A stretch of DNA of 54,305 nt from the NCBI GenBank assembly GCA_031426395.1, contig JANPLG010000164.1:1-54305 (forward strand), written 5' to 3'. This stretch comes from Actinomycetes bacterium (lineage in GTDB: Bacteria > Armatimonadota > SYMT01). Shown here one piece after another: positions 2,678 through 50,130 of this stretch (position 1 is the stretch's first letter; every line of letters begins with the position of its first letter). The notes beneath the pieces are model-generated. The model made no database searches, was not told where the DNA came from, and saw only the letters and a list, made by a program, of their open reading frames with translations. The translations under genes and the position numbers were made by a program.

Positions 2678-4051
2678 CTACTTCCGCTTCCCAAGGTCCA
2701 GATCCATCACCGTCCCAATGAGCGTCTTCTCCGCATCGCCGGAGCCGACGCGCAGGCCGTGAATGGCCTGACCGACTTCCGCCGCTTGCTCTGAAGCACC
2801 GGCCTGCTGGAGGAGCATCTGGGTGCGCTGGAGGTCCGCCATGGCGTGGGCGGTGGAGAGCTGCTGGGTCTTGAGGCCCATCATGGTGCGCTCAAGGTTC
2901 CGGCTGGCACCCGCGACTTCGATCTCGCGCTGGACGGTGCCGTTGACACCGCTCTTTACCAGCCCCGCATCGTCCACGAAGTTGAAGACTACATCCGCTT
3001 CGATGCGCTGATTGAAAGCGCCGGTGACACAGTCATCGTAGAAGACCTCCGCCTTGGCCACGCGGTAGGTGGCGGCGGGCCGGCGGCCGAGAGCCAGCTC
3101 CGTCAGGATGCGGACGGTCGCGCCGCGGTCGAGGTCGGAAAGCTGCACCTCCACGGTGCGGGGTCCGATGGTGGGCTGGTGGCCGTAAACTTGGCGGAGG
3201 TCGGTCCAGCGGCTCAGCACCAGCCGCAGACGGATGTTCTTGGCCACGATGGAGAGCAACTGCTCCATCTCGGAGCGGAAGACTTCCGGGATCAGTTCCG
3301 GGCGCGTGATGTAGTAGTAGTTGCCGCCGCCGCGCCGGGCCATGCCGACCAGCAGCTCCTCGTTGTACTCCGGCCCGAAGCCGAGGGCGGTGATGGTGAT
3401 GCCACGGCTGCGCTGCTCCCCGGCAGCCCCCACGATGGACGAATAGTCCTTCACGCCGGCCGTCGGCTCGCCGTCCGTGAGGACGACCACGCGGTTGACG
3501 TAGCCCTCGCTGCGGACGGAGGCCACCTGACTGGCGCCGGCCACAAGGCCATCGTAGATGTTGGTGGTGTTGCCCGGCTGGATGCGGTTGATGTGCTCCT
3601 TGACCAGCCCCTTGTTCACCACCCGGCGCGCCGGCATGACGATGTCGACCCGCTCCTCGAAGGTGACGACGGAGAGCACGTCGTTCTGGTCGAGGAGGTC
3701 GACCACGTGGCCGCATGCCCGCTTCACGTACTCCAGTGGCTCGCCTTCCATGGAACCGCTGCGGTCGATGACAAGGCAAAGGTTGAGCGGCATGCGCCGT
3801 CCGACCATCCCACCGCCCGCGTTGAGCTGGAAGAGGATGTGGTCCGAAGCACTACGGCCCGCCTGGGCATACTGGTTGCCCGTGATCACATCGAGGGAAA
3901 GTGCTTGCGGCGGCGCGCCCATGGCGGTGCGGGCGGGGTCGAAGCCACCGGGGGCATAGCCGCCGGGTCCGAAGCCCCCAATCTGGGTGGCATCCCCGCC
4001 CCCAAAGCCACCCCCGAGGTCGGCAGGGCCGATGATCCGTGTGCTTTCCAT
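2678..4051 (-). CDS. von Willebrand factor A (vWA) domain protein
   Basis: MIDAS motif DRSGSM, plus GNTTNI, LTDGE and GFGPEYNEELL. Confidence 0.92.
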   Translation of the reverse strand: MESTRIIGPADLGGGFGGGDATQIGGFGPGGYAPGGFDPARTAMGAPPQALSLDVITGNQYAQAGRSASDHILFQLNAGGGMVGRRMPLNLCLVIDRSGSMEGEPLEYVKRACGHVVDLLDQNDVLSVVTFEERVDIVMPARRVVNKGLVKEHINRIQPGNTTNIYDGLVAGASQVASVRSEGYVNRVVVLTDGEPTAGVKDYSSIVGAAGEQRSRGITITALGFGPEYNEELLVGMARRGGGNYYYITRPELIPEVFRSEMEQLLSIVAKNIRLRLVLSRWTDLRQVYGHQPTIGPRTVEVQLSDLDRGATVRILTELALGRRPAATYRVAKAEVFYDDCVTGAFNQRIEADVVFNFVDDAGLVKSGVNGTVQREIEVAGASRNLERTMMGLKTQQLSTAHAMADLQRTQMLLQQAGASEQAAEVGQAIHGLRVGSGDAEKTLIGTVMDLDLGKRK

Positions 4052-4178: not shown

Positions 4179-7100
4179 CTACTTTGATCTCACGCCGGTC
4201 AGGCGGAAGTTGAAGTTGCCGCTCTCGCACTCCACGGCAATGGCGTCGCCCAGGTCGCGTGCACCGAGCAGTCCGGGAGCGACGCCCGTAAATCCTTCGC
4301 GCCAGACCTCCCGCCCGCCTTCCGAGATGCGCACCTGCGTCAGACCGCGCTTCGGAATCCGGACGACGCCAGTGGAGCCGACCGGCAGCCGGACATCCAG
4401 GCTCAGCGTCTCGCCCTCCAGCTTCCATCCACTTTCGATAGTACCATAGCCAGAGTCGTATGCGCCGCGCGCCCAGGTGATGCCGGGTCCCACCTGCGGC
4501 TGAATGCGCACCCGCCGATAGCCATAGCCGATGGGGTCCGTATCAATCCCCACGAGGTACCGCTGCAGCCATTCGCCCACGGTGCCGAATGCGAAGTGGT
4601 TCCGGCTGTTCATGTCCGGTCCCTGCTTGTCGCTGTCCCAGAGTTCCCAGATGGATGTGGCACCCTTCTCCACCATGTAGCCCCAGGACGGGAAGTCCCG
4701 TTGCAGCAGCACCCGGTAGGCGAGATCGCTCTGGCCGGTGTCGGAGAGGGCGGGGAGCAGGAAGCGGGTCCCGATGAATCCAGTGGCGAGGTGGTCGTTG
4801 CGCCGCTTCAGGGCTTCCGTGAAGCGCTGGGTGACCTGAGCGCGGCGGGCATCCGGCACCAGCCCCAGGCCGAAGCTCATCGCATACGCGGTCTGCGTAT
4901 CGCCGGTATAACGGCCCTCGGCATCGAGGAAACGCGCGTTGTAGGCGGCCTTCGCCTTGTCAGCAAGCTCCCCGTAGCGGGCGGCCTCGTCCTTCTTGCC
5001 AAGGACCCGCGCCATCTCGGAGACTGCACGGAGGTCCCAGGCGAGGTAGCCGCTGGCGATGAGGTCCTTGTTGGTCTGCTCGCCGGCGGGGACCCAATCG
5101 CCGAAGTCGTTGTTGCGGCGCTTCAGCCACAGGAGGTCCGGGTTGGCGGAAACGAGCAGATCGACATACTTCTTCACCGCCGGGTAGCTGCGCTCCAGGA
5201 GACGCGTGTCCCCGTAGGCCAGGTACTGCTCCCACGGGATGACGACGCCGGCATCTCCCCAGGAAGGGGCACCGTCCGCCTTGTTGACCACGCGCGGCGC
5301 GATGTCTCCGAATGCGCCCTCCGGCGACTGGGCGTCGAGGATGTCCCGCATCCACTTGGTCCAGAAGCCGCCCATCTCCATATTCCAGTTGGCGGTGCGG
5401 GCGAAGAGCTGGGCATCGCCCATCCAGCCGAGGCGCTCGTCACGCTGGGGGCAATCGGTGGGCACGCTCATCATGTTGCCGCGCTGGCCCCGGTGGATGT
5501 TTTCAAAGAGCTTGTTGACCAGGTCGCTGGAAGTCTCCAGGCGCGAGGTGCGCGGCATGGCGCTGTGGATCACGCGGCCTGCCAGGGCATCGAGCTTCGG
5601 CTCTCCGGGGTAGCCGGTGATCTCCACATAGCGGAAGCCGTGATAGGTGAAGCTCGGCTCCCACTCTTCGACCGTCTTCCCATTGCCGGCACCCTTGAGG
5701 ACGTAGACGTCCGTGGCGCGAGCCTTGCGGAGGTTGTCGCGGTAGACGCTGCCGTCCGGGTTGAGGATCTCGGCGAAGCGGAGCTTGATGGAGGTGCCGG
5801 CCGGCCCCTTCGCCCGCAGCCGGGCCCAGCCGACCATGTTCTCGCCCATGTCGAAAACGAAGACGCCCGGCTTCGGCTCCCGGACGGCAACCGGCGCGAT
5901 CTCCCGCGTGACCCGGATGGGCGGGCTGGTGAGGCCGCTCAACTGCGGGTTCTGATCCGCGAAGAGCTGAACCGCTTGCCAGACGTTGGTCGGCTGCACC
6001 AGGTCCGGATTCGTCCATTCCGGCAGTTCGCGGCGGGCGTCGTAGGTCTCGCCGGCGTAGAGGTCAGATTCCAGGATGGGGCCGTTCGATCCAAGCCAGC
6101 TCCGGTCGGTGGTGATCGTCTCCGCGCCGCCGTCCTCGTAGCGGACCTGGATCTGCAGCTTCAGCCGCGCGGGGCTGGGACCGAAGTGGTTGCGGGCGAG
6201 GTCCGGGCCGAGGGATCCGGCATACCAACCATCCGCGAGTACCGCGCCAACCACGTTGGCACCCCGGCGAAGGTCTGAGGTGACGTCGTAGGTCTGATAC
6301 TGAACGCGCTTCGTGTAGTCCGTCCACCCGGGCGCGAGGACCTCGTCACCGATCCGCTTGCCGTTCAGATGGAGCTCGTAGAGGCCAAGGGCGGAGACGT
6401 AGGCGCGGGCGGAGCGGATGCCGCGCGTGAGCTGGAACTGCTTTCGGAGGTGCGGACTGGGACCTGCATTGCCGTGGCTGCCAATGGCGACCTTCCCCCA
6501 CGGCGCAATCCCCAGCGCGCCGAGGACTTTGGTGGCAGGCCAGGAAGCATCATTAAAGCCAGGCTTCTCCCAGCCGACCATATCCCGGCTGCTCGCCTTC
6601 CAAGAGGCGTCGATGTCCTGGACCAGCTCCGGCCCGCTCTCAAACTCGATGACCAGGCGTCCCATCAGGGCCGCAGGTCCCTCCGTCGCGTTGTTAGCCA
6701 CCACCGCAAAGGTGTTCGCGCCACCGACGAGCTTGTCGAGGATGTCGCTAGGCTGGGCACTGGGCCAACCGTTGGCGGAGCCGGCCTGCGCACCGTTCGC
6801 CCAGAGTTGGGCGTCGTTGTCCACGGCCATCCAAAAGGTCGCGCGCTTCGGCTTGCGGTCGAGGGAGAGGGTCTTGCGGAAGTAGCGCTTACCGGCGGCG
6901 GCGCTCTGGACGGGGTTCCCTTCCGGGAACCAGACCCACTTCGCGCCATCCAGGGAGGCGACTTTGGCGGCAGGCCCATTCCCCGGATAGCCGATCCATG
7001 CGGCCTTCCAGTCGCCCGCGTCCAGGCCGGTCTCGAACCAGGCGGTCTCGCTGAAGGCGGAGGGCGCGCCGGAGCGATCCCAGACGCGGACCCGCCAGTG

Positions 7101-13756: not shown

Positions 13757-13944
13757 ATTGCGGAATGCGGAATGCGGAGTGCGGAATGCGGATTGCGCGC
13801 CAGGCATGTGGGGATGTGTGGGTGTTTGGGTGTGTGGGGCGCGGAACGTAAGGTTTCTGAAGGTCCCAGAAAAACAGACCGGGGGGGACACCACCACCAC
13901 CACCGACCTGCGGGTTTCTGGTTCCTGGTTTCTAGTTTCTGGTT
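13757..13944. repeat. Cluster of short tandem arrays: (GCGGAAT)n, (GTGTGGGT)-like and (GGTTTCT)-like
   Basis: attgcggaatgcggaatgcggagtgcggaatgcggattg at 13757-13795; gtgggatgtgtgggtgtttgggtgtgtggg at ~13808-13838; ggtttctggttcctggtttctagtttctggtt at ~13913-13944. Confidence 0.85.
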
Positions 13945-14077: not shown

Positions 14078-14440
14078 AACCGCCAAGTCGCCAAGGACGC
14101 CAAGAGGGGGAAGAGAGGGCCGCAGAGTTGTTGGTCCAGGGCGTTCACGATTGTGCCGGTGGGTTGCATGCATCACGCGCAGGGGCGTGGTTCCCTGGAC
14201 CCTCGTAGGGCAGTTGGCGCACGCGCCGGACGAGGGGATGCCAAGGGTGACGGAGGGTGGTGCGGGGCAGGATCGGTCCTGGTTGGCGGTAGGCGGTGCG
14301 GGAGCCAGGCAACCGTCGTCATTCCCGGCGAGGGACGGCTGGGGGCGTGGTCCCTGTGCGCTCCGGGAATCCAGGGCACGGCCATCTGGGGCGTAGGCGG
14401 TCCCGGAGATGGGAACCGCCAAGGCGCCAAGGACGCCAAG
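14078..14440 (+). repeat. Two copies of AACCGCCAAGnCGCCAAGGACGCCAAG
   Basis: 14078-14104 and 14414-14440 differ by one mismatch. Confidence 0.8.
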
Positions 14441-15200: not shown

Positions 15201-16596
15201 TGAACCCGGCTCTGGACCACCCAGGGCGGTGCCCTGGGCTGGCGTATTGCGCCCCTTCAGGGCTGGGGTGTGATGGGGCCTCGGTCCCAGGGCACCGCCC
15301 TCGGGCTCTCGCTGTGGCGCCTCACCGCTCTGGACAGCAGAGGCGATCCCCGCCTATGCCTTGGGCTCGGTTGTCGTCGAGCCGTACAATCAAGCATTCC
15401 CTGTCCTCAACCAGTAGCGATGCCGCAATCTCTCTCCCGACTCCACATCCACCTGATTTTCAGCACCAAGCATCGGGAGCCTTGGATCACCGATGCTGTG
15501 CGGCCTGAGTTGCACGCCTACATGGCGCAGATTCTGAAGGCCCATCGGTGCACGCCAGTGCTGATCAACTCCGTGGAGGACCACGTCCACCTTCTCATCG
15601 ACCTCGCCCGCACCGTCACGGTCAGCAAGGTCGTCGAGGATCTGAAGGTCGACTCCTCGAAATGGATCAAGACCCAGGGACCGGAGTTCGCCGGTTTCGC
15701 ATGGCAGGGTGGATATGGGGCGTTTGCCATCTCAGAGGTTCATTTGAATCGCGTGGGCACCTACATCGCCAGGCAGCAGGAGCACCACCGCACGGAATCG
15801 TTCCAGGACGAATGCCGCGCCCTGTTTCAGTCGGAGGGGATCGCCTACGACGAGCGGTACGTCTGGGACTGAACCCGGCTCTCGAACACCCAGGACGGTG
15901 CCCTGGGCTGGCGTAGTACGCCCCTTCAGGGCTGGACGGTACCGGACAACCGAGCACCCAGGGCGGTGCCCTGGGCTGGCATAGTACGCCCCTTCAGGGC
16001 TGGGCATTACGTATGGCTTGAACGCACAGCGCTGGCGTATTGCGCCCGTTTGGGGCTGACCGACTGGTACGCCCGGTCATGATCTCAATACCCCGTCGTT
16101 CCGCACCGATGCCTCCACCGGTCGCCTTGCAACGAATGGTACCTACCCGTATACCGTGTGAACCCCAGCCCCAACGGGGCGAGATAAGCTAGCCCAGGGC
16201 ATCGCCCTGGGACCTGTCGTCTCGTACAACCCACAGCCCTGAAGGGGCGCAATACGCTAGCCCAGGGCACCGCCCTGGGACTCGCCCCCAGAGCCCCGCC
16301 CCGGGATGCCACCACCCCTCTGCATCGCAGACGCGCTGCCTCTGAGGGGCCAGGGCATTGCCATCCATCAACGCTACGCCTGCCCCTGAACCCGGCTCTC
16401 GACCACCCAGGGCGATGCCCTGGGCTGCCTTATCGCGCCCCTCCAGGGCTGGGGTTATGGTGAGGCCTCGGTCCCAGGGCTCTGCCCTGGGCTGCCTTAT
16501 TGCGCCCCTTCAGGGCTGGACGGTTCCTATGGGCCGGACGCACGGCGTCACAGCCCCACCAGGACGTACTACGATAGCCCAGGGCACCGCCCTGGG
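15201..16596. repeat. REP-like palindromic array (about 10 copies, both orientations) flanking the Y1 transposase
   Basis: Unit CCCAGGGC-n3/4-GCCCTGGGCT-n-CGCCCCTTCAGGGCT at 15220, 15286, 15889, 15957, 16031 (partial), 16406 and 16473; inverted copies at 16167, 16235 and 16552. Confidence 0.9.
15420..15872 (+). mobile_element. tnpA: IS200/IS605-family Y1 HUH transposase (REP-associated, RAYT-like)
   Basis: MPQSLSRLHIHLIFSTKHR, DHVHLL (HUH), FAWQGGYGAF and catalytic Y in YIARQQEHH; no tnpB nearby. Confidence 0.92.
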
Positions 16597-25858: not shown

Positions 25859-25909
25859 CGCATCTCAATCCGCATCTCAATCCGCATTCCGTATTCCGTA
25901 TTCCGCAAT
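25859..25909. repeat. Heptamer array (TCCGCAT)n, inverse of the array at 13757
   Basis: caatccgcattccgtattccgtattccgcaat at 25878-25909, preceded by a duplicated cgcatctcaatc. Confidence 0.85.
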
Positions 25910-29982: not shown

Positions 29983-30381
29983 CTACGCTCGCGGCTTGTA
30001 GGCCACGCAGTCGATCTCGACCCGGATATCGGACGGCGGGTGAGCTTCCACGGTGGTGCGGGCCGGCGGCTCAGTGGGGAAGAACTCCCGGTAGGCCTCG
30101 TTCATGGCCGCGAAGTCGAAGCGGTTTGCGAGGTAGACGTTGCACTTCACCACGTCCGCCATACTCGCGCCTGCGGCTTCCAGGATGGTCTGCACATTGC
30201 GCAGCACCTGCCGGGTCTCGGCCTGGATGCTCTCGCGGACATAGCTGCCGGTGGCGGGGTCCATCGGACCCTGGCCAGAGACGTAGATGAAATCCCCGGC
30301 AATCACAGCGGGCGAATAGGGACCGGCGGGCTTGGGAGCGTTCTCGGGAAACACGGACTGGCGCATGAAGGTGCTCGTCAA
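29983..30381 (-). CDS. RidA/YjgF family protein
   Basis: APKPAGPYSPA, VSGQ, MNEAY..FF, PPART and VEIDCVA. Confidence 0.95.
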   Translation of the reverse strand: MTSTFMRQSVFPENAPKPAGPYSPAVIAGDFIYVSGQGPMDPATGSYVRESIQAETRQVLRNVQTILEAAGASMADVVKCNVYLANRFDFAAMNEAYREFFPTEPPARTTVEAHPPSDIRVEIDCVAYKPRA

Positions 30382-30464
30382 AGGGGAGGGCGAAGGTACC
30401 TCACCTCATTCGCCGATCCATACACGCTTTCCTCGGCATCCGCTATCCAGTGGAGCCGCCACCC

Positions 30465-30756
30465 CCGTCCTTCCGGGGAAGACGCGTCGTGGAGCGTTGG
30501 ACCCGTGCCTTCCCGGAATCTCTCATGCCCTTCGGGCACCTACATTTATGAAGCGGTCGTTAGGCAAGGCCAGCCTTTGGCACGAAGTGCTTCCTATCTT
30601 GCCCCACGGCGCCGTCATTCCGGGCTGTACCTGTCATGAGCGAGGGAGTGTTGCCCTCCCGGAACCCATTTGAACCCGGCCTGATCGTGCTCCCCGCCAC
30701 GGCCAACGGAGCTATGTGTTAGCCACGGACGAGCTGAGTTTTATACGGTCCAGCCG
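30465..30756 (-). ncRNA. Unclassified conserved structured non-coding element, copy 1
   Basis: Aligns along its length with 48774-49064; 52-nt identical core; stems conserved and loops variable; strand inferred from G-U pairs. Confidence 0.6.
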
Positions 30757-31054
30757 TACTCCTTAAGTGTGTCGGAGCAGCCCCTCGCCGAACGGTGAGC
30801 CACGTTTGACGTGGGTGCATTTGACCCCTGCCAGCGCGTGCTCCCCTCCAGCGGACATACCTGGCAGTGAAGGACGCTCTCGATTGGCTCGCAGCCTCCC
30901 ATCTCCCCGTCTCCCCATCAGTCGCGGTGAAGGGATCGAAGTGCGCGTGGGCCAAGTGATGGAAGAGGCGCCTCTGCTAGGGGGATCGCCGGGCTCCCGG
31001 GTGGGGTCAACGATATGCGGCGGCAGGTCGCTTGAACGAGAATTGGAAACGAGA

Positions 31055-33912: not shown

Positions 33913-36456
33913 ATGAAGAAACTCCGCTTCCCACTCCTCGCACCTTTGCCCCTGGTGATTGCCGCAGCCGTTGGAACGGTCGGAGTCGGGACTATGGCGG
34001 TTGGTTGGGCGGCGGACAAAAGAGCTGCCGACCTCACCAAGCTGCCCCCGGCGGCGACGGCGAAGGTCGACTACCTCCGTGACATCGAGCCGCTCTTCAA
34101 GTCCCGCTGCATGGCCTGTCACGGTGCCACGAAGGCGCTCGGTGGGCTGCGGCTGCATCTCCCGGCGCAGATCCTGGAAGGCGGTGACGGCGGCATCGTG
34201 CTAACCCCCGGAAAGAGCGCGGAGAGCCGCCTGGTCCATTACATTGCCGGGGCGCTGGAGGGCAAAGTGATGCCTCCCGCCGGCCCGCGCCTCACCGCGC
34301 AGGAGGTCGGCCTGGTCCGTGCCTGGATCGACCAGGGCGCGGAGCTTCCCAAGCGAGAGGGCGCGGCGGCCTCTCCTGCATCGATTCATTGGGCGTTCCA
34401 ACCGATCTGCAAACCTGCCGTCCCGCGGGTGAAGCAGGCCGCCTGGGTCCGTAACCCGATTGATGCCTTCATCCTGGCAAGGCTGGAAGCGAAGGGGCTG
34501 AAGCCCGCACAGCTGGCGGACCCGATCACCCAGCTTCGGCGCGTTAGCCTCGACCTCACCGGGCTGCCGCCCGCCCCAGAGGAGGTTGACACCTTCCTCA
34601 AGGACCCGTCACCGGACGCCTTCGAGCGGGCAGTGGACCGGCTCCTCACCAGCCCCCACTATGGGGAGCGGTGGGGGAGGCAGTGGCTCGATCTGGCCCG
34701 GTACGCGGACAGCAACGGCTATTCGATTGATGGCGCGCGCCAGATGTGGCTCTACCGGGACTGGGTCATCCAGGCTCTCAACGCAGACCTCCCCTTCGAC
34801 CGCTTCACCATCGAGCAGCTTGCCGGCGACCTCCTCCCCAACCCTTCCCGTGAGCAGCTCATTGCCACCGGCTTCCATCGCAATACCTTGGTCAACGAGG
34901 AAGGTGGGACGGATGCAGAGCAGTTCCGCATCGAGGCGGTGGGGGATCGGGTCGATACCACCGGCGCCGTCTGGATGGGGCTGACGGTCGGCTGCGCTAA
35001 GTGCCACACGCACAAGTACGATCCGCTCACGCAGCGCGAGTACTACCAGCTCTTCGCCTTCTTCAATAGCCAGGATGAGCCGAACCTCAGCTTCCCCTCA
35101 CCGGAGCAATCGCGCCGGCTGGCGGAGTTGAAGCGCCAGCTTTCCGAGGCCCAGAAGGCACTGGCGGAGTATGACCGGCTCCACACCATTGCCAAGGGGG
35201 AGTCCCGTAAGGACGATCCAGCGCGGAAGCTGCTGGCCGACCGGGTGGCAGCTCTGCAGAAGGACGACCGGGAGTTCGCCAGGAGCGTCAACACTGCGAT
35301 GGTGCTTCGCGAGCGGCCCGAACCGCGCCCCACGCACCTCATGATCCGTGGCGACTTCCTACGCAAGGGTCCCCTCGTCCGCCCCAATGTCCCTGCGGTG
35401 CTGCCGCCGCTCCCGCCCTCAGGCACGGACGGTCATCCCACGCGCCTCGACCTTGCCCGCTGGCTGGTGAGCGAGAAAAACCCGCTCACGCCCCGCGTCA
35501 CCGTGAACCGCGTCTGGATGCAGTACTTCGGGCAGGGGCTGGTGGAAACGGAGAACGACTTCGGCGTCCAGGGCAGCCTCCCCACCCATCCGGAACTCCT
35601 CGACTACCTCGCCGCAACCTTTGCGGGAGTTCCCGGTTCCCGGTTTCCGGTTTCCGGTTCAGCCGTTCCCATCACCGGCAACAAGCAACAGGGAACAGGA
35701 AACAGGGAACAGGGAACCCCTTGGAGCCTCAAGGGGCTCCATCGGCTGATCGTTACCTCGGCCACCTATCGGCAGAGCAGCAAGCACCGGCCGGAACTGA
35801 AGGCTGTCGATCCCCGCAACCTGCTCCTCGCGAAACAGAATCGGCTGCGGCTGGACGCGGAACTCATCCGTGACACGGCGCTAGCGGCCAGCGGGCTGCT
35901 TTCTCGCAAGATCGGGGGGCCGAGCGTCTTCCCGCCCCATCCTCCCGGCACGGAGGCCCTCACGCAGGTCAAGCGCGTCTGGACCCCCAGCAAGGGCGAG
36001 GACCGCTACCGCCGGGGCCTCTACACTTGGCACTGGCGCAGCAACCCTTTCCCGCTCTTCGTCACCTTCGACGCCCCCAACGGTAACGTCACCTGCACGC
36101 GACGCCTCAGGTCCAACACGCCCAATCAGGCGCTGATGCTCGCCAATGACGAGATGTTTGTCGAGATGGCGCAGTCCCTGGGGGCGCGTGCCCTCCGCGA
36201 GGGACCCTCTGACGACGCCGGCCGCATCGCCTGGATGTTCCGCCGCTGCGTTGGGCGACAACCCGAGCCAGGGGAGGCAGCGCGCCTGGGGCAGTTCCTA
36301 CGTTCGCAGTTCGCCGCCTTCCAGGCCGAACCCACGGAAGCCGAGAAGGCCGCCCCTCGTGACCGGCCCGCCGGTGTCGATGCTCCCACCGGCGCATCCT
36401 GGAGCGCACTGGCCCGCGTCCTCCTCAACCTGGACGAGTTCATCACCCGTGAGTAA
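33913..36456 (+). CDS. Planctomycete cytochrome c + DUF1549 (PSCyt2) + DUF1553 (PSD1) protein
   Basis: CMACH and CAKCH heme motifs; NPIDAFI, YGERWGRQWLDLARYADSNG, HPELLDYLA and LNLDEFITRE. Confidence 0.95.
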   Translation: MKKLRFPLLAPLPLVIAAAVGTVGVGTMAVGWAADKRAADLTKLPPAATAKVDYLRDIEPLFKSRCMACHGATKALGGLRLHLPAQILEGGDGGIVLTPGKSAESRLVHYIAGALEGKVMPPAGPRLTAQEVGLVRAWIDQGAELPKREGAAASPASIHWAFQPICKPAVPRVKQAAWVRNPIDAFILARLEAKGLKPAQLADPITQLRRVSLDLTGLPPAPEEVDTFLKDPSPDAFERAVDRLLTSPHYGERWGRQWLDLARYADSNGYSIDGARQMWLYRDWVIQALNADLPFDRFTIEQLAGDLLPNPSREQLIATGFHRNTLVNEEGGTDAEQFRIEAVGDRVDTTGAVWMGLTVGCAKCHTHKYDPLTQREYYQLFAFFNSQDEPNLSFPSPEQSRRLAELKRQLSEAQKALAEYDRLHTIAKGESRKDDPARKLLADRVAALQKDDREFARSVNTAMVLRERPEPRPTHLMIRGDFLRKGPLVRPNVPAVLPPLPPSGTDGHPTRLDLARWLVSEKNPLTPRVTVNRVWMQYFGQGLVETENDFGVQGSLPTHPELLDYLAATFAGVPGSRFPVSGSAVPITGNKQQGTGNREQGTPWSLKGLHRLIVTSATYRQSSKHRPELKAVDPRNLLLAKQNRLRLDAELIRDTALAASGLLSRKIGGPSVFPPHPPGTEALTQVKRVWTPSKGEDRYRRGLYTWHWRSNPFPLFVTFDAPNGNVTCTRRLRSNTPNQALMLANDEMFVEMAQSLGARALREGPSDDAGRIAWMFRRCVGRQPEPGEAARLGQFLRSQFAAFQAEPTEAEKAAPRDRPAGVDAPTGASWSALARVLLNLDEFITRE

Positions 36457-47304: not shown

Positions 47305-47525
47305 GGTTCCCACTCCGAAATCGTTGAGCGGTGTGATCGCCGCTTCAGCAGACGGTTCCACAAGCGGGCCGCCAACTCCTATCCGAGCGGTCCGCCAACC
47401 TGTTGCACGTTACGCTTGGCCAACACCATCGTCCTCAAACAACTACTCTCGAATGCGAATTCCCGCCACCAGCCCCAGCACGCTCCGCCAACCTCGGCCC
47501 ACCGTCACAACACGTTGCGAAGCCT

Positions 47526-47552
47526 GCATTCTGCATTCTGCATTCTGAATTC
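47526..47552. repeat. Heptamer array (GCATTCT)n
   Basis: gcattctgcattctgcattctgaattc, abutting the stop codon of the racemase gene. Confidence 0.8.
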
Positions 47553-48684
47553 ACCCCACGAGTTTCATCCCACCCGTATGCCGCGCGATCCCTTCGGCGC
47601 TCCAACGGAAACCGAGGCCGGGACCATCCGGGATGGTGAGGAAGCCCTCCGCGTCCAGCGCTGGAGGCGTCTCGCAAAGGTCCTCGATGTAGGGCGCGGG
47701 AGTGATGTACTCCACCCAGCGCGCATTTCCCGCCGCCGCGACAAGCTGCAGGTCCGCCGCCAGGCCGACCGCCGTGTTCCAGCCGTGCGGCACGAAGAGG
47801 ATGGAGTGCTCATCCGCATACTGGGCAATCCGGTGCTCTTCCGTGATGCCGCCCACCTTGGTGACGTCCGGCTGGATGTAGTCGACCGCCCGCCGTTCGA
47901 TCCATGGAAGGAAGCTCTGCCGACGGGTCAGCACCTCGCAGCCGGCGATGGGGACGGGCGAGTGCTCCGTCAGCTTGACGTAGCCTTCGAGGTCGTCCGG
48001 CCGCAGCGCCTCCTCGAACCAGGTGATGTCGTACTGGGCCAGCATCCGCGCGGTCTGGATTGCCCATTTGTAGCCGTGCGGCCAGTAAGCGTCCGAGCCG
48101 CCGGCGTCGACCATCAGCTCCACGTCCGGCCCAACGGCCTCGCGCGCGGCTCGGACAATCGCCTCGTCCGTTCGCGCATCCCGCCGGCCGAAAGGGCCCC
48201 ACCCGATCTTGAAGGCGCGGAAGCCCCGCTCCAGGCCGGGAAGAAGGCGCTCCGCCATGCCCTCCGGCTCGGTCATCAGCAGGGAACCGTACGGCTTGAT
48301 CCGTTCGCGGCGGCGACCTCCCAGGAGGCGGCTGATCGGCTGGCCGGTGATCTTCCCCCAGAGGTCCCATAGTGCGATGTCGATGCCGGAGATGGCGTGC
48401 GTAATCGAACCGCCGCGCCCCTGCCAGAAGGTGTTCTGGTGAAGGTTCTCCGAGACCACCGCTGGGTCACACGCGGATGCGCCGATCAGGAAGGGGCGGA
48501 GCACACCCAGCGCACCCTCCACCAGCTTGCCCGAGGTGAACACCGACCCCAGGCCAGAGACCCCTTCGTCAGAGACCACCTCCAGCAAGGTGTGTAGATT
48601 CTCCTCCGGGTCGAACCCGGACGACCAGCCGCCATCCGGCGTAGCTCCGATGAGCGGTAGGACACGTAGTTCGCGGATCTTCAT
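47551..48684 (-). CDS. Mandelate racemase/muconate lactonizing enzyme family (enolase superfamily)
   Basis: AISGIDIALWDL.GK, AFKIG, LMVDA, WFEE, QPDVTKVGGITE and PHGW. Confidence 0.95.
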   Translation of the reverse strand: MKIRELRVLPLIGATPDGGWSSGFDPEENLHTLLEVVSDEGVSGLGSVFTSGKLVEGALGVLRPFLIGASACDPAVVSENLHQNTFWQGRGGSITHAISGIDIALWDLWGKITGQPISRLLGGRRRERIKPYGSLLMTEPEGMAERLLPGLERGFRAFKIGWGPFGRRDARTDEAIVRAAREAVGPDVELMVDAGGSDAYWPHGYKWAIQTARMLAQYDITWFEEALRPDDLEGYVKLTEHSPVPIAGCEVLTRRQSFLPWIERRAVDYIQPDVTKVGGITEEHRIAQYADEHSILFVPHGWNTAVGLAADLQLVAAAGNARWVEYITPAPYIEDLCETPPALDAEGFLTIPDGPGLGFRWSAEGIARHTGGMKLVG

Positions 48685-48689
48685 GAGAG

Positions 48690-48718
48690 AGGGTTCAGGG
48701 TTCAGGGTTCGGGGTTCA
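48690..48718. repeat. Heptamer array (GGGTTCA)x4
   Basis: agggttcagggttcagggttcggggttca, immediately upstream of the racemase start. Confidence 0.85.
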
Positions 48719-48773
48719 GTCTTGGGCCGAAGCCCTTGGTCTGCAATGAGGGGTGGTTCGGAAACCCCGTAGG

Positions 48774-49064
48774 CCGTCACTCCGGGCACACTTGAGGCAT
48801 TGGAGTGTGGACTAACTCCCCTCCCGGAATCTGCCATGCCTTCGCGGCACCCATCCATGAAACGGTCGTTAAGCAAGGCCAGCCATCGGCACGAAATGCT
48901 TCCTATCCGGCACCCAGCGCCGTCATTCCGGGCTGTACCTCTCATGGGCGAGGGAGTGTTGTCCTCCCGGAACCCATTTGAACCCGGCCTGATCGTGCTC
49001 CCCGCCACGGCCAAGGGAGCTATGTGTTAGCCAAGGGCGAGATCAGTTTCACAGGATCCAGCCG
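48774..49064 (-). ncRNA. Unclassified conserved structured non-coding element, copy 2
   Basis: See copy 1 at 30465-30756. Confidence 0.6.
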
Positions 49065-49251
49065 GATCGACGCTGCGCGTGGGAGAAGTCCTTCCGCCGA
49101 CCGCAACCGTGTCCGGTTCCCGCGCGTTGGGTGGTTCTCCTGCCGTGGATTCGATACCCGTGTCTCAACGCCAGCCGTGCCGCGCCCTTGTGATTTAATG
49201 GGGCCAGCCGGGGCAATCGACTCCCAGGCAGCGGGGATTGGCGGAGGCGGC

Positions 49252-50130
49252 ATGGCAGCCCGAATCATTGACGGCAAGGCGGTAGCGGCGGAGGTCCTGA
49301 AGGGCCTGGCGCTGGAGGCGGCCCAACTCCGGGAAGCCCGCGTCATAGCAACCATCGCGGTGGTGCTGGTGGGGGACGACCCTGCCTCCCACACCTACGT
49401 CCGAAGCAAGATCCGCACCGCGGAGAGCCTGGGGATGGGGTCGCGCGCCCACATCTTGCCGGAGAGCACGCCGCACGCGGAACTGATGGGCCTGGTGCAG
49501 CAACTCAACGAAGACCCGGCGGTCCACGGGATCCTGGTTCAGCTTCCGCTCCCTCCGCAGATCAACGCCACCGAGGTACTGGACGCCATCCACCCGCTGA
49601 AGGATGTCGATGGCTTTCATCCCTACAACGTGGGCAAACTGGTCCAGGGCGGCACCCCCATGCCGCCCTGCACGCCTGCGGGCATCCTGGAGCTGATCCG
49701 GCACTCCGGGATCAGCCTGCCCGGGAAGGAAGCGGTGGTGGTGGGGCGAAGCAACATCGTGGGGAAGCCGGTGGCGCTGCTGCTGCTGGCGGAGAACGCC
49801 ACGGTGACCGTCTGCCACAGCCGCACCGCTGACGTGGCGGCAGTCTGCCGTCGCGCGGACGTGCTGGTGGTGGCCATCGGACGGGCGCGGATGATTACGG
49901 CTGACTTCGTGAAGGAGGGTGCGGTGGTGATCGATGTCGGCACTAACCGCCTCACGGAGGGGCTTGCCGAGGGGGAGCAAGCCGGGAAGCTGTGCGGGGA
50001 TGTCGACTTCGCCTCCGTCTCCCAGAAGGCGGGTGCGCTCACACCCGTGCCAGGCGGCGTCGGCCCAATGACCATCGCCATGCTGATGAAGAACACCTTG
50101 ACTGCGGCGCGGCTCCAATCCGCAGCCTGA
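49252..50130 (+). CDS. folD: Methylenetetrahydrofolate dehydrogenase/cyclohydrolase
   Basis: [46 protein letters not shown] and [11 protein letters not shown]. Confidence 0.98.

Follow-up and report, generated by a model that had tools for sequence, protein, structure and literature searches.

Two related intergenic elements as probable members of a lineage-specific, high-copy, MITE-like mosaic repeat family with a compensated internal helix

The Correia elements of Neisseria, ERIC/IRU, RUP and Nezha are bacterial MITEs. Mosaic repeats are represented by the BIMEs of enterobacteria and the BOX elements of pneumococci (see also PMC3049150). Riboswitches and other leaders keep a constant position upstream of related genes and are conserved across species, and bridge RNAs and omega RNAs adjoin a gene for an IS110-type recombinase, TnpB or IscB. 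Here, we focused on an intergenic element found as two copies, A and B, in a 54,305-nt stretch of DNA (the window). This element showed neither the constant position nor the cross-species conservation of a leader, and its copies did not adjoin any of the enzyme genes just named.

We aligned copies A and B on the minus strand, and the mean column identity was 86% over 391 columns. A run of 52 nt was identical in the two copies, while small indels of 1-2 nt elsewhere in the alignment rule out a shared reading frame. A preliminary description of this DNA had proposed two similar, non-coding copies on the same strand, each in a divergent intergenic region; the alignment bears out the former point and the flanking gene calls the latter. 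Copy A is flanked by a RidA-family gene on the minus strand (29983-30381) and, on the plus strand, by a 3-keto-disaccharide-hydrolase-like gene. The neighbours of copy B are an enolase-superfamily gene on the minus strand (47551-48684) and, on the plus strand, folD (49252-50130). The boundaries first given, 30465-30756 and 48774-49064, were too tight, as similarity between the copies extends about 25-40 nt further at each end (Table 1). The same description had recognised no known RNA signature, and this was upheld by a search of Rfam 15, which gave zero matches at the gathering score on either copy. At E<=10, only three sub-threshold eukaryotic matches appeared in the interval 30300-30900, and when the whole window was compared with Rfam 15 (riboswitches, ribozymes, RNase P, SRP, tmRNA, 6S, HEARO and others) the element stayed unmatched at the gathering thresholds. 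ARAGORN likewise reported zero tRNA- or tmRNA-like genes in 50 copies. A -10-like promoter had also been suggested, and a simple promoter and terminator scan returned zero sites at either copy.

Table 1. Positions of the two copies, their parts and the adjoining tandem array in the window
Feature	Coordinates	Strand	Evidence or remark
Copy A, long form	30442..30797	-	nhmmer match 30467-30758, HMM positions 3-295; ends approximate (arms degenerate), extended by comparison with full-length copies
Copy A core, ~100 nt, holding the module 1 P1 domain	30597..30700	-	covariance model R1, 114.9 bits, E 1.5e-19
Copy A P1 clamp helix	30617..30665	-	5' strand 30658-30665 pairs with 3' strand 30617-30624
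Copy A module 2, second P1-type domain with divergent interior	30471..30518	-	read from sequence
Copy B, long form, both arms recognisable	48748..49106	-	nhmmer match 48773-49066
Copy B core	48905..49008	-	R1, 106.4 bits, E 7.3e-18
Copy B P1 clamp helix	48925..48973	-	5' strand 48966-48973 pairs with 3' strand 48925-48932
Heptamer tandem array, AGGGTTC x4.3	48690..48719	.	between copy B and the enolase-family start codon

The element had been described as present twice, which proved wrong by a wide count. BLAST of copy A against its own genome (6.16 Mb in 611 contigs) gave 43 matches, nhmmer with a 300-position HMM built from 26 long copies gave 87, and R1, a covariance model for which 60 copies of the ~100-nt core were used, gave 122 at E<=0.01. 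In the probable source metagenome, the unique flanks of copy A had a summed contig depth of 7.7 and the core one of up to 840, which fits about a hundred copies if all of them come from the same organism. Pairwise identity among 62 cores ranged from 0.52 to 1.00 with a median of 0.73, indicating that the family is old within its lineage. At this median identity, nearly invariant sequence adjoins the core helix, P1, across three subfamilies.

The search for homologues in the genome and the phylum, which the preliminary description had proposed, thus yielded about a hundred copies in this genome, and R1 with stricter filters detected none in 150 other genomes sampled across the phylum. The core was not found by BLAST in any of 40 relatives, nor by R1 in six genomes of the same family, including the sole genome of the same genus. 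A strict exact-pattern scan of a genome collection with one genome per species found nothing, and a loose pattern scan of the genome collection returned four Streptomyces stretches, which were taken as chance matches because the element HMM does not recognise them. Exact-pattern scans of a metagenome contig collection with two patterns gave 0 and 0 matches, and the element was unmatched in plasmid and phage collections. Short contigs identical to the window were also present in a second metagenome, which comes from soil, indicating that the organism itself occurs in another study. Text searching of the literature, where sequence comparison with papers is impossible, found no description of the element. 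A 'Solibacter-1' motif that has no Rfam entry is listed by Weinberg et al. 2010 (PMC2864571).

A complete long form measures ~350 nt and consists of two arms, module 2 (a P1 domain with a variable interior) and an internal module of ~225 nt, which carries a second, better conserved P1 domain, namely the ~100-nt core. The layout is one of two modules, with one interior conserved and the other variable. At their tips, the arms carry imperfect inverted repeats based on the palindrome GACCGGTC; in full long copies, for example at C464:1066-1413, an imperfect inverted repeat of ~15 nt containing GACCGGTC is found at both ends, and both ends are present in the full long copies of contigs C464 and C252. 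In a short form of 133 nt, the 5' arm is joined directly to a P1-type domain and the 3' arm, without the internal module; this P1 domain and module 2 of copy A are homologous. The layout of arms and P1 domain in the short form indicates that the long form equals the short form plus the ~225-nt internal module with its core. Either an insertion may have produced the long form or a deletion the short one. An HMM of the short form gave 40 matches, of which 20 were stand-alone at E<=1e-12 and most others were the two arms of long copies, including those of copy B (49049-49103 and 48761-48835). Among 13 near-full short copies, the 5' terminal 9-mer was matched in nine and the 3' 8-mer in 12, with no more than two mismatches. 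No target-site duplication, in the form of a flanking direct repeat, was visible at these 13 short copies or at the full long copies. The arms are degenerate in many copies, copy A included; a second subfamily carries the core with quite different flanks, and tail-to-head arrangements also occur.

The exact palindrome TGACCGGTCA occurred 35 times in the genome, against a median of three for 60 palindromes of the same composition, and two to nine times in each of five relatives; it also bounds other small repeat units. This excess, together with the bounding of other units, suggests that the 'inverted repeat' may be a shared recognition or junction motif rather than the private end of one transposon. 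The short palindrome-based repeat could represent a duplicated palindromic target or a junction motif common to several repeat types. A recurring motif of ~45 nt often adjoins TGACCGGTCA. Moreover, a separate repeat unit of ~130 nt with TGACCGGTCA at both ends was observed at C257:7890-8036, C534:6145-6268, C585:40655-40785 and C593:55-185; one of its ends has a heptamer array, the opposite end a second short repeat. By our own reading, pieces like the two ends of this unit lie on either side of the element in C252, which suggests nesting.

We further compared insertion sites with the corresponding loci of relatives. At the C171 locus, 558 nt separate the flanking genes here, from stop to start codon, while the distance is 4 nt in the same-genus genome G001 and 25 nt in G004 of a second genus; a gap of 17 nt lies between the ends of the BLAST segments in a third genus. 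At the C252 locus, the spacer is ~690 nt here versus 13 nt in the relative G006, with the start codon placed from the alignment. Besides the element, the extra DNA at both loci includes G-rich tandem repeats downstream of the stop codon and heptamer-type repeats that precede the start codon. The element is thus present here and absent from relatives at these two syntenic sites, in a comparison between genera or species and not between strains. Both flanks were recovered in a relative for two of the four non-window loci tested, and one flank for the other two (C468 and C222). Synteny with G001 is broken at both window copies, and the empty-site evidence comes from C171 and C252 instead; around the intervals 30381-30767 and 48684-49252 of the window, the two neighbouring genes of each copy are found on separate contigs in G001. 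In the contigs of two metagenome runs across the element, no empty-site allele was seen, which does not imply its absence. These loci show that, in one lineage, intergenic space within former operons can expand from 4-25 nt to 560-690 nt, and that this growth proceeds by stacking of several repeat types.

Tandem arrays resembling that at 48690-48719 accompany the element at the C171 and C252 insertion sites. The window array stands directly before the enolase-family start codon, as similar arrays stand before start codons at those two loci. Eight arrays of period 7 and several of period 8 were observed in the 54-kb window, and the tandem arrays include those at 48690-48719, 47524-47552, 35629-35717, 25881-25905, 13759-13944 and 2630-2671.

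P1 is a helix of 8 bp that closes an interior of 33-45 nt. In an alignment of 60 cores, it was 90-93% paired with both-sided changes at five of the eight pairs, and its covariation score was reached by none of 500 shuffles. As a control, the partner strand was slid by 1-3 columns, and pairing was 38-55% versus 86% for the structure. RNAalifold, run without a supplied structure, returned P1 as the sole predicted helix. The P1 of copy A, which encloses ~33 nt, draws its helix support from this 60-copy alignment, and the P1 domain of the short forms showed further compensated variants at three positions in our own reading of a 20-row alignment. The same 9-nt tandem duplication was observed in the loop beside P1 at C163:~3783-3895 and C244:~4325-4437. 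Two inner hairpins that we tried were weak, at 81% and 73% paired. The peripheral stems proposed in the preliminary description were 81%, 84% and 77% paired in 26 long copies; double-sided compensation was absent from them, and changes mostly broke pairs. Calling the element structured is therefore apt for P1 alone, since the other stems decay uncompensated and folding energies are mostly close to those of shuffled sequences. On the minus strand, the minimum-free-energy z-scores of the two window copies were -0.83 and 0.07, and that of copy A on the plus strand was 0.00; seven of nine folds were not below their shuffles. When three short forms were folded on both strands, C379 alone stood out, with z-scores of -3.6 and -4.0, and low values on both strands point to a symmetry at the DNA level. 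Wobble pairs picked no strand either, with G-U favouring the minus strand at the terminal pair and 17 C-A cells corresponding to G-U on the opposite strand. Inspection by eye also raised two further pairings, a pseudoknot (AUGGG/CCCAU) and an outer helix as an alternative (CCGGGUU/AGCCCGG), which were set aside since neither is kept in the subfamily sequences. An 11-codon ORF inside the core was also rejected: its stop is not kept in other subfamilies, and by our own reading its 'synonymous' changes are compensated P1 positions.

Candidate mobilising enzymes were sought in the genome, which encodes six Y1 transposase genes and one IS110-type gene; a search for a TnpB domain found none. The long-form HMM gave zero matches at the six Y1 loci and the IS110-type locus. 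The short-form HMM gave one weak match across these seven loci, at ~14170-14254 on the plus strand (E 6.6e-05 within the locus set), which lies about 1.2 kb upstream of the Y1 gene of the window. One element copy was found 1.6 kb from the Y1 gene on contig C577. A search for an autonomous parent revealed no between-copy similarity longer than ~475 nt and no matching pair of ends 0.7-4 kb apart with an ORF; with an assembly of 611 contigs, the parent insertion sequence may be unassembled. Three of the Y1 genes have Acido-Lenti-1 motifs on their flanks; two others have different repeats there. In the window, six matches to Acido-Lenti-1 RNA (RF01687) were observed on both sides of the Y1 gene (~15421-15872, plus strand; interval 15220-16517), a layout that resembles a RAYT gene with REP sequences, and at two more of the six Y1 loci such matches lie beside the gene. 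The Acido-Lenti-1 motif may simply be a REP family. At the loci on C373, C535 and C549, two further Y1 genes each have short segments on their flanks of which the genome contains 13-28 occurrences, and a ~200-nt segment upstream of the sole IS110-type gene likewise recurs 13-28 times.

Genes around the copies were called with a crude codon-usage model of our own, which underlies the intergenic and orientation counts, and the element strand was taken as the window minus strand. All 52 copies scoring at least 60 bits overlapped no predicted gene, on contigs with a coding fraction of 0.78 by the same caller. Twenty of them were antisense between tandem genes (anti-tandem), 13 convergent, nine sense between tandem genes (co-tandem), eight divergent and two at contig ends. 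A tandem-aptamer leader had been among the options of the preliminary description, and a cis-regulatory leader for the RidA/permease operon and the enolase-family gene would agree with the position of both window copies, which end about 85-90 nt upstream of a co-directional start codon. However, when downstream genes were tabulated across the family, they were mutually unrelated, and co-directional at 18 of 51 copies and opposed at 33 (binomial p 0.049). No recurring partner gene emerged from the 222 proteins encoded within 3 kb of the 52 copies, the largest cluster having three members. Moreover, in five relatives the element was absent beside or upstream of the orthologues of the RidA operon and the enolase-family gene, the latter lying immediately 3' of another gene in G001. 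Mixed orientation, unrelated neighbours and orthologues without the element exclude a dedicated leader and a fixed partner gene; the context of the copies effectively refutes the leader reading, against which the restriction of the family to one genome also counts. The two modules, one with a conserved and one with a variable interior, recall instead an orphan guide-type RNA (bridge RNA or omega RNA) of an RNA-guided mobile-element enzyme, in which the conserved module would bind the enzyme or the donor and the variable module the target. This proposal, also made in the preliminary description, is extremely improbable: the genome has no TnpB domain, no copy adjoins its sole IS110-type gene, the neighbourhoods of the copies share no recurring partner gene, and the window was unmatched by Rfam at the gathering score. 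In the target search that had been suggested, the variable module-2 interiors of A and B matched nothing else in the genome.

Another reading, a REPIN-like element that one of the Y1 (HUH) transposases of the genome moves as single-stranded DNA, with P1 as the recognised hairpin, would be in keeping with the six Y1 genes, with the conserved and compensated helix and with the copy near the C577 gene, and the missing target duplication fits Y1 mechanisms. We consider this very unlikely, given that the element HMMs were unmatched at the Y1 flanks except for the weak short-form match near the Y1 gene of the window, that the Y1 genes are flanked by Acido-Lenti-1 (three) or different repeats (two), and that the 33-45 nt enclosed by P1 are unlike a REP palindrome of 20-40 nt. 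The compensatory changes themselves imply that a fold is under selection, something that a reading as purely selfish DNA does not call for, and they keep a functional-RNA or single-strand-recognition reading alive at low odds. The copies might be multi-copy functional structured RNAs, either small RNA genes or cis elements for stability, processing or termination, in which P1 and its conserved single-stranded flanks would be functional and the copy number would stem from gene-family expansion or exaptation. Besides the compensated P1, the near-invariant sequence adjoining it across three subfamilies speaks for such RNAs, as do peripheral hairpins capped by GNRA-like and UUC loops and a small 5'-arm hairpin that, by our own reading, varies between G-U, G-C and A-U on the element strand. 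Functional RNAs are nonetheless an unlikely explanation of a family of more than 100 copies in mixed orientations to their neighbours that genome, phylum and metagenome searches did not find outside one genome. The window copies also lack a promoter-like or terminator-like site, seven of nine folds were no better than shuffles, peripheral stems decay uncompensated, and wobble pairs identify no strand.

Taken together, we favour, with a probability of about 0.7, the reading that A and B are long-form members of a lineage-specific, high-copy, MITE-like mosaic family of non-coding interspersed repeats. The empty sites in relatives and the terminal inverted repeats support insertion, and insertion as DNA. 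The copies would have spread by DNA insertion, mobilised in trans by a transposase recognising their termini, and the P1 fold may matter in single-stranded RNA or DNA, serving either propagation or tolerance inside transcripts. Next to the RidA, enolase and folD genes, the copies are probably passengers and not dedicated regulators. Of the 'non-autonomous mobile RNA' suggested earlier, the non-autonomous mobile element fits best, but no sign of movement in RNA form was observed. Tail-to-head junctions and the shuffling of modules would be atypical for cut-and-paste MITEs and count against the MITE reading. The (T)GACCGGTC(A) ends, the missing target duplication, the nesting, the tail-to-head junctions and a P1 compensated in more than 100 copies sit poorly with ordinary cut-and-paste MITEs and lead us to allow an outside chance that the P1 clamp is a working part of an undescribed mobilisation system. 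The P1 domain, as RNA or single-stranded DNA, could then be the fold recognised by a site-specific or circle-forming recombinase whose target site is palindromic.

For annotation, these results mean that about a hundred intergenic stretches of the genome come down to one repeat family, to which much of the fragmentation of the assembly is probably traceable, and that two similar copies in one window should not be taken for a pair of regulatory RNAs. An 8-bp helix that is compensated across diverged copies would be worth an experiment if it reflects a mechanism of mobilisation.

Compared with known systems, the element resembles REP sequences and REPINs with their RAYT genes in being a high-copy intergenic repeat with a conserved hairpin and no target duplication, and REP/REPIN-RAYT systems are also present in its genome. 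Unlike REP sequences, it does not flank Y1 transposase genes, and its 133-350 nt with a complex interior differ from a pair of 20-40-nt palindromes. With BIMEs and BOX elements, it shares a small set of modules in differing numbers and orders and an intergenic position, often inside operons, whereas its modules are larger (~100-nt core) and terminal inverted repeats are present. It departs from MITEs in that its inverted repeat is short and palindrome-based, its internal helix is compensated and its modules are reshuffled and nested, while neither a target-site duplication nor a parent insertion sequence was found for it. Like MITEs, however, the element is short and non-coding, occurs in tens to hundreds of intergenic copies through a lineage-specific expansion, has terminal inverted repeats and both long and short forms (~350 and 133 nt), and is inserted between genes that are adjacent in relatives.
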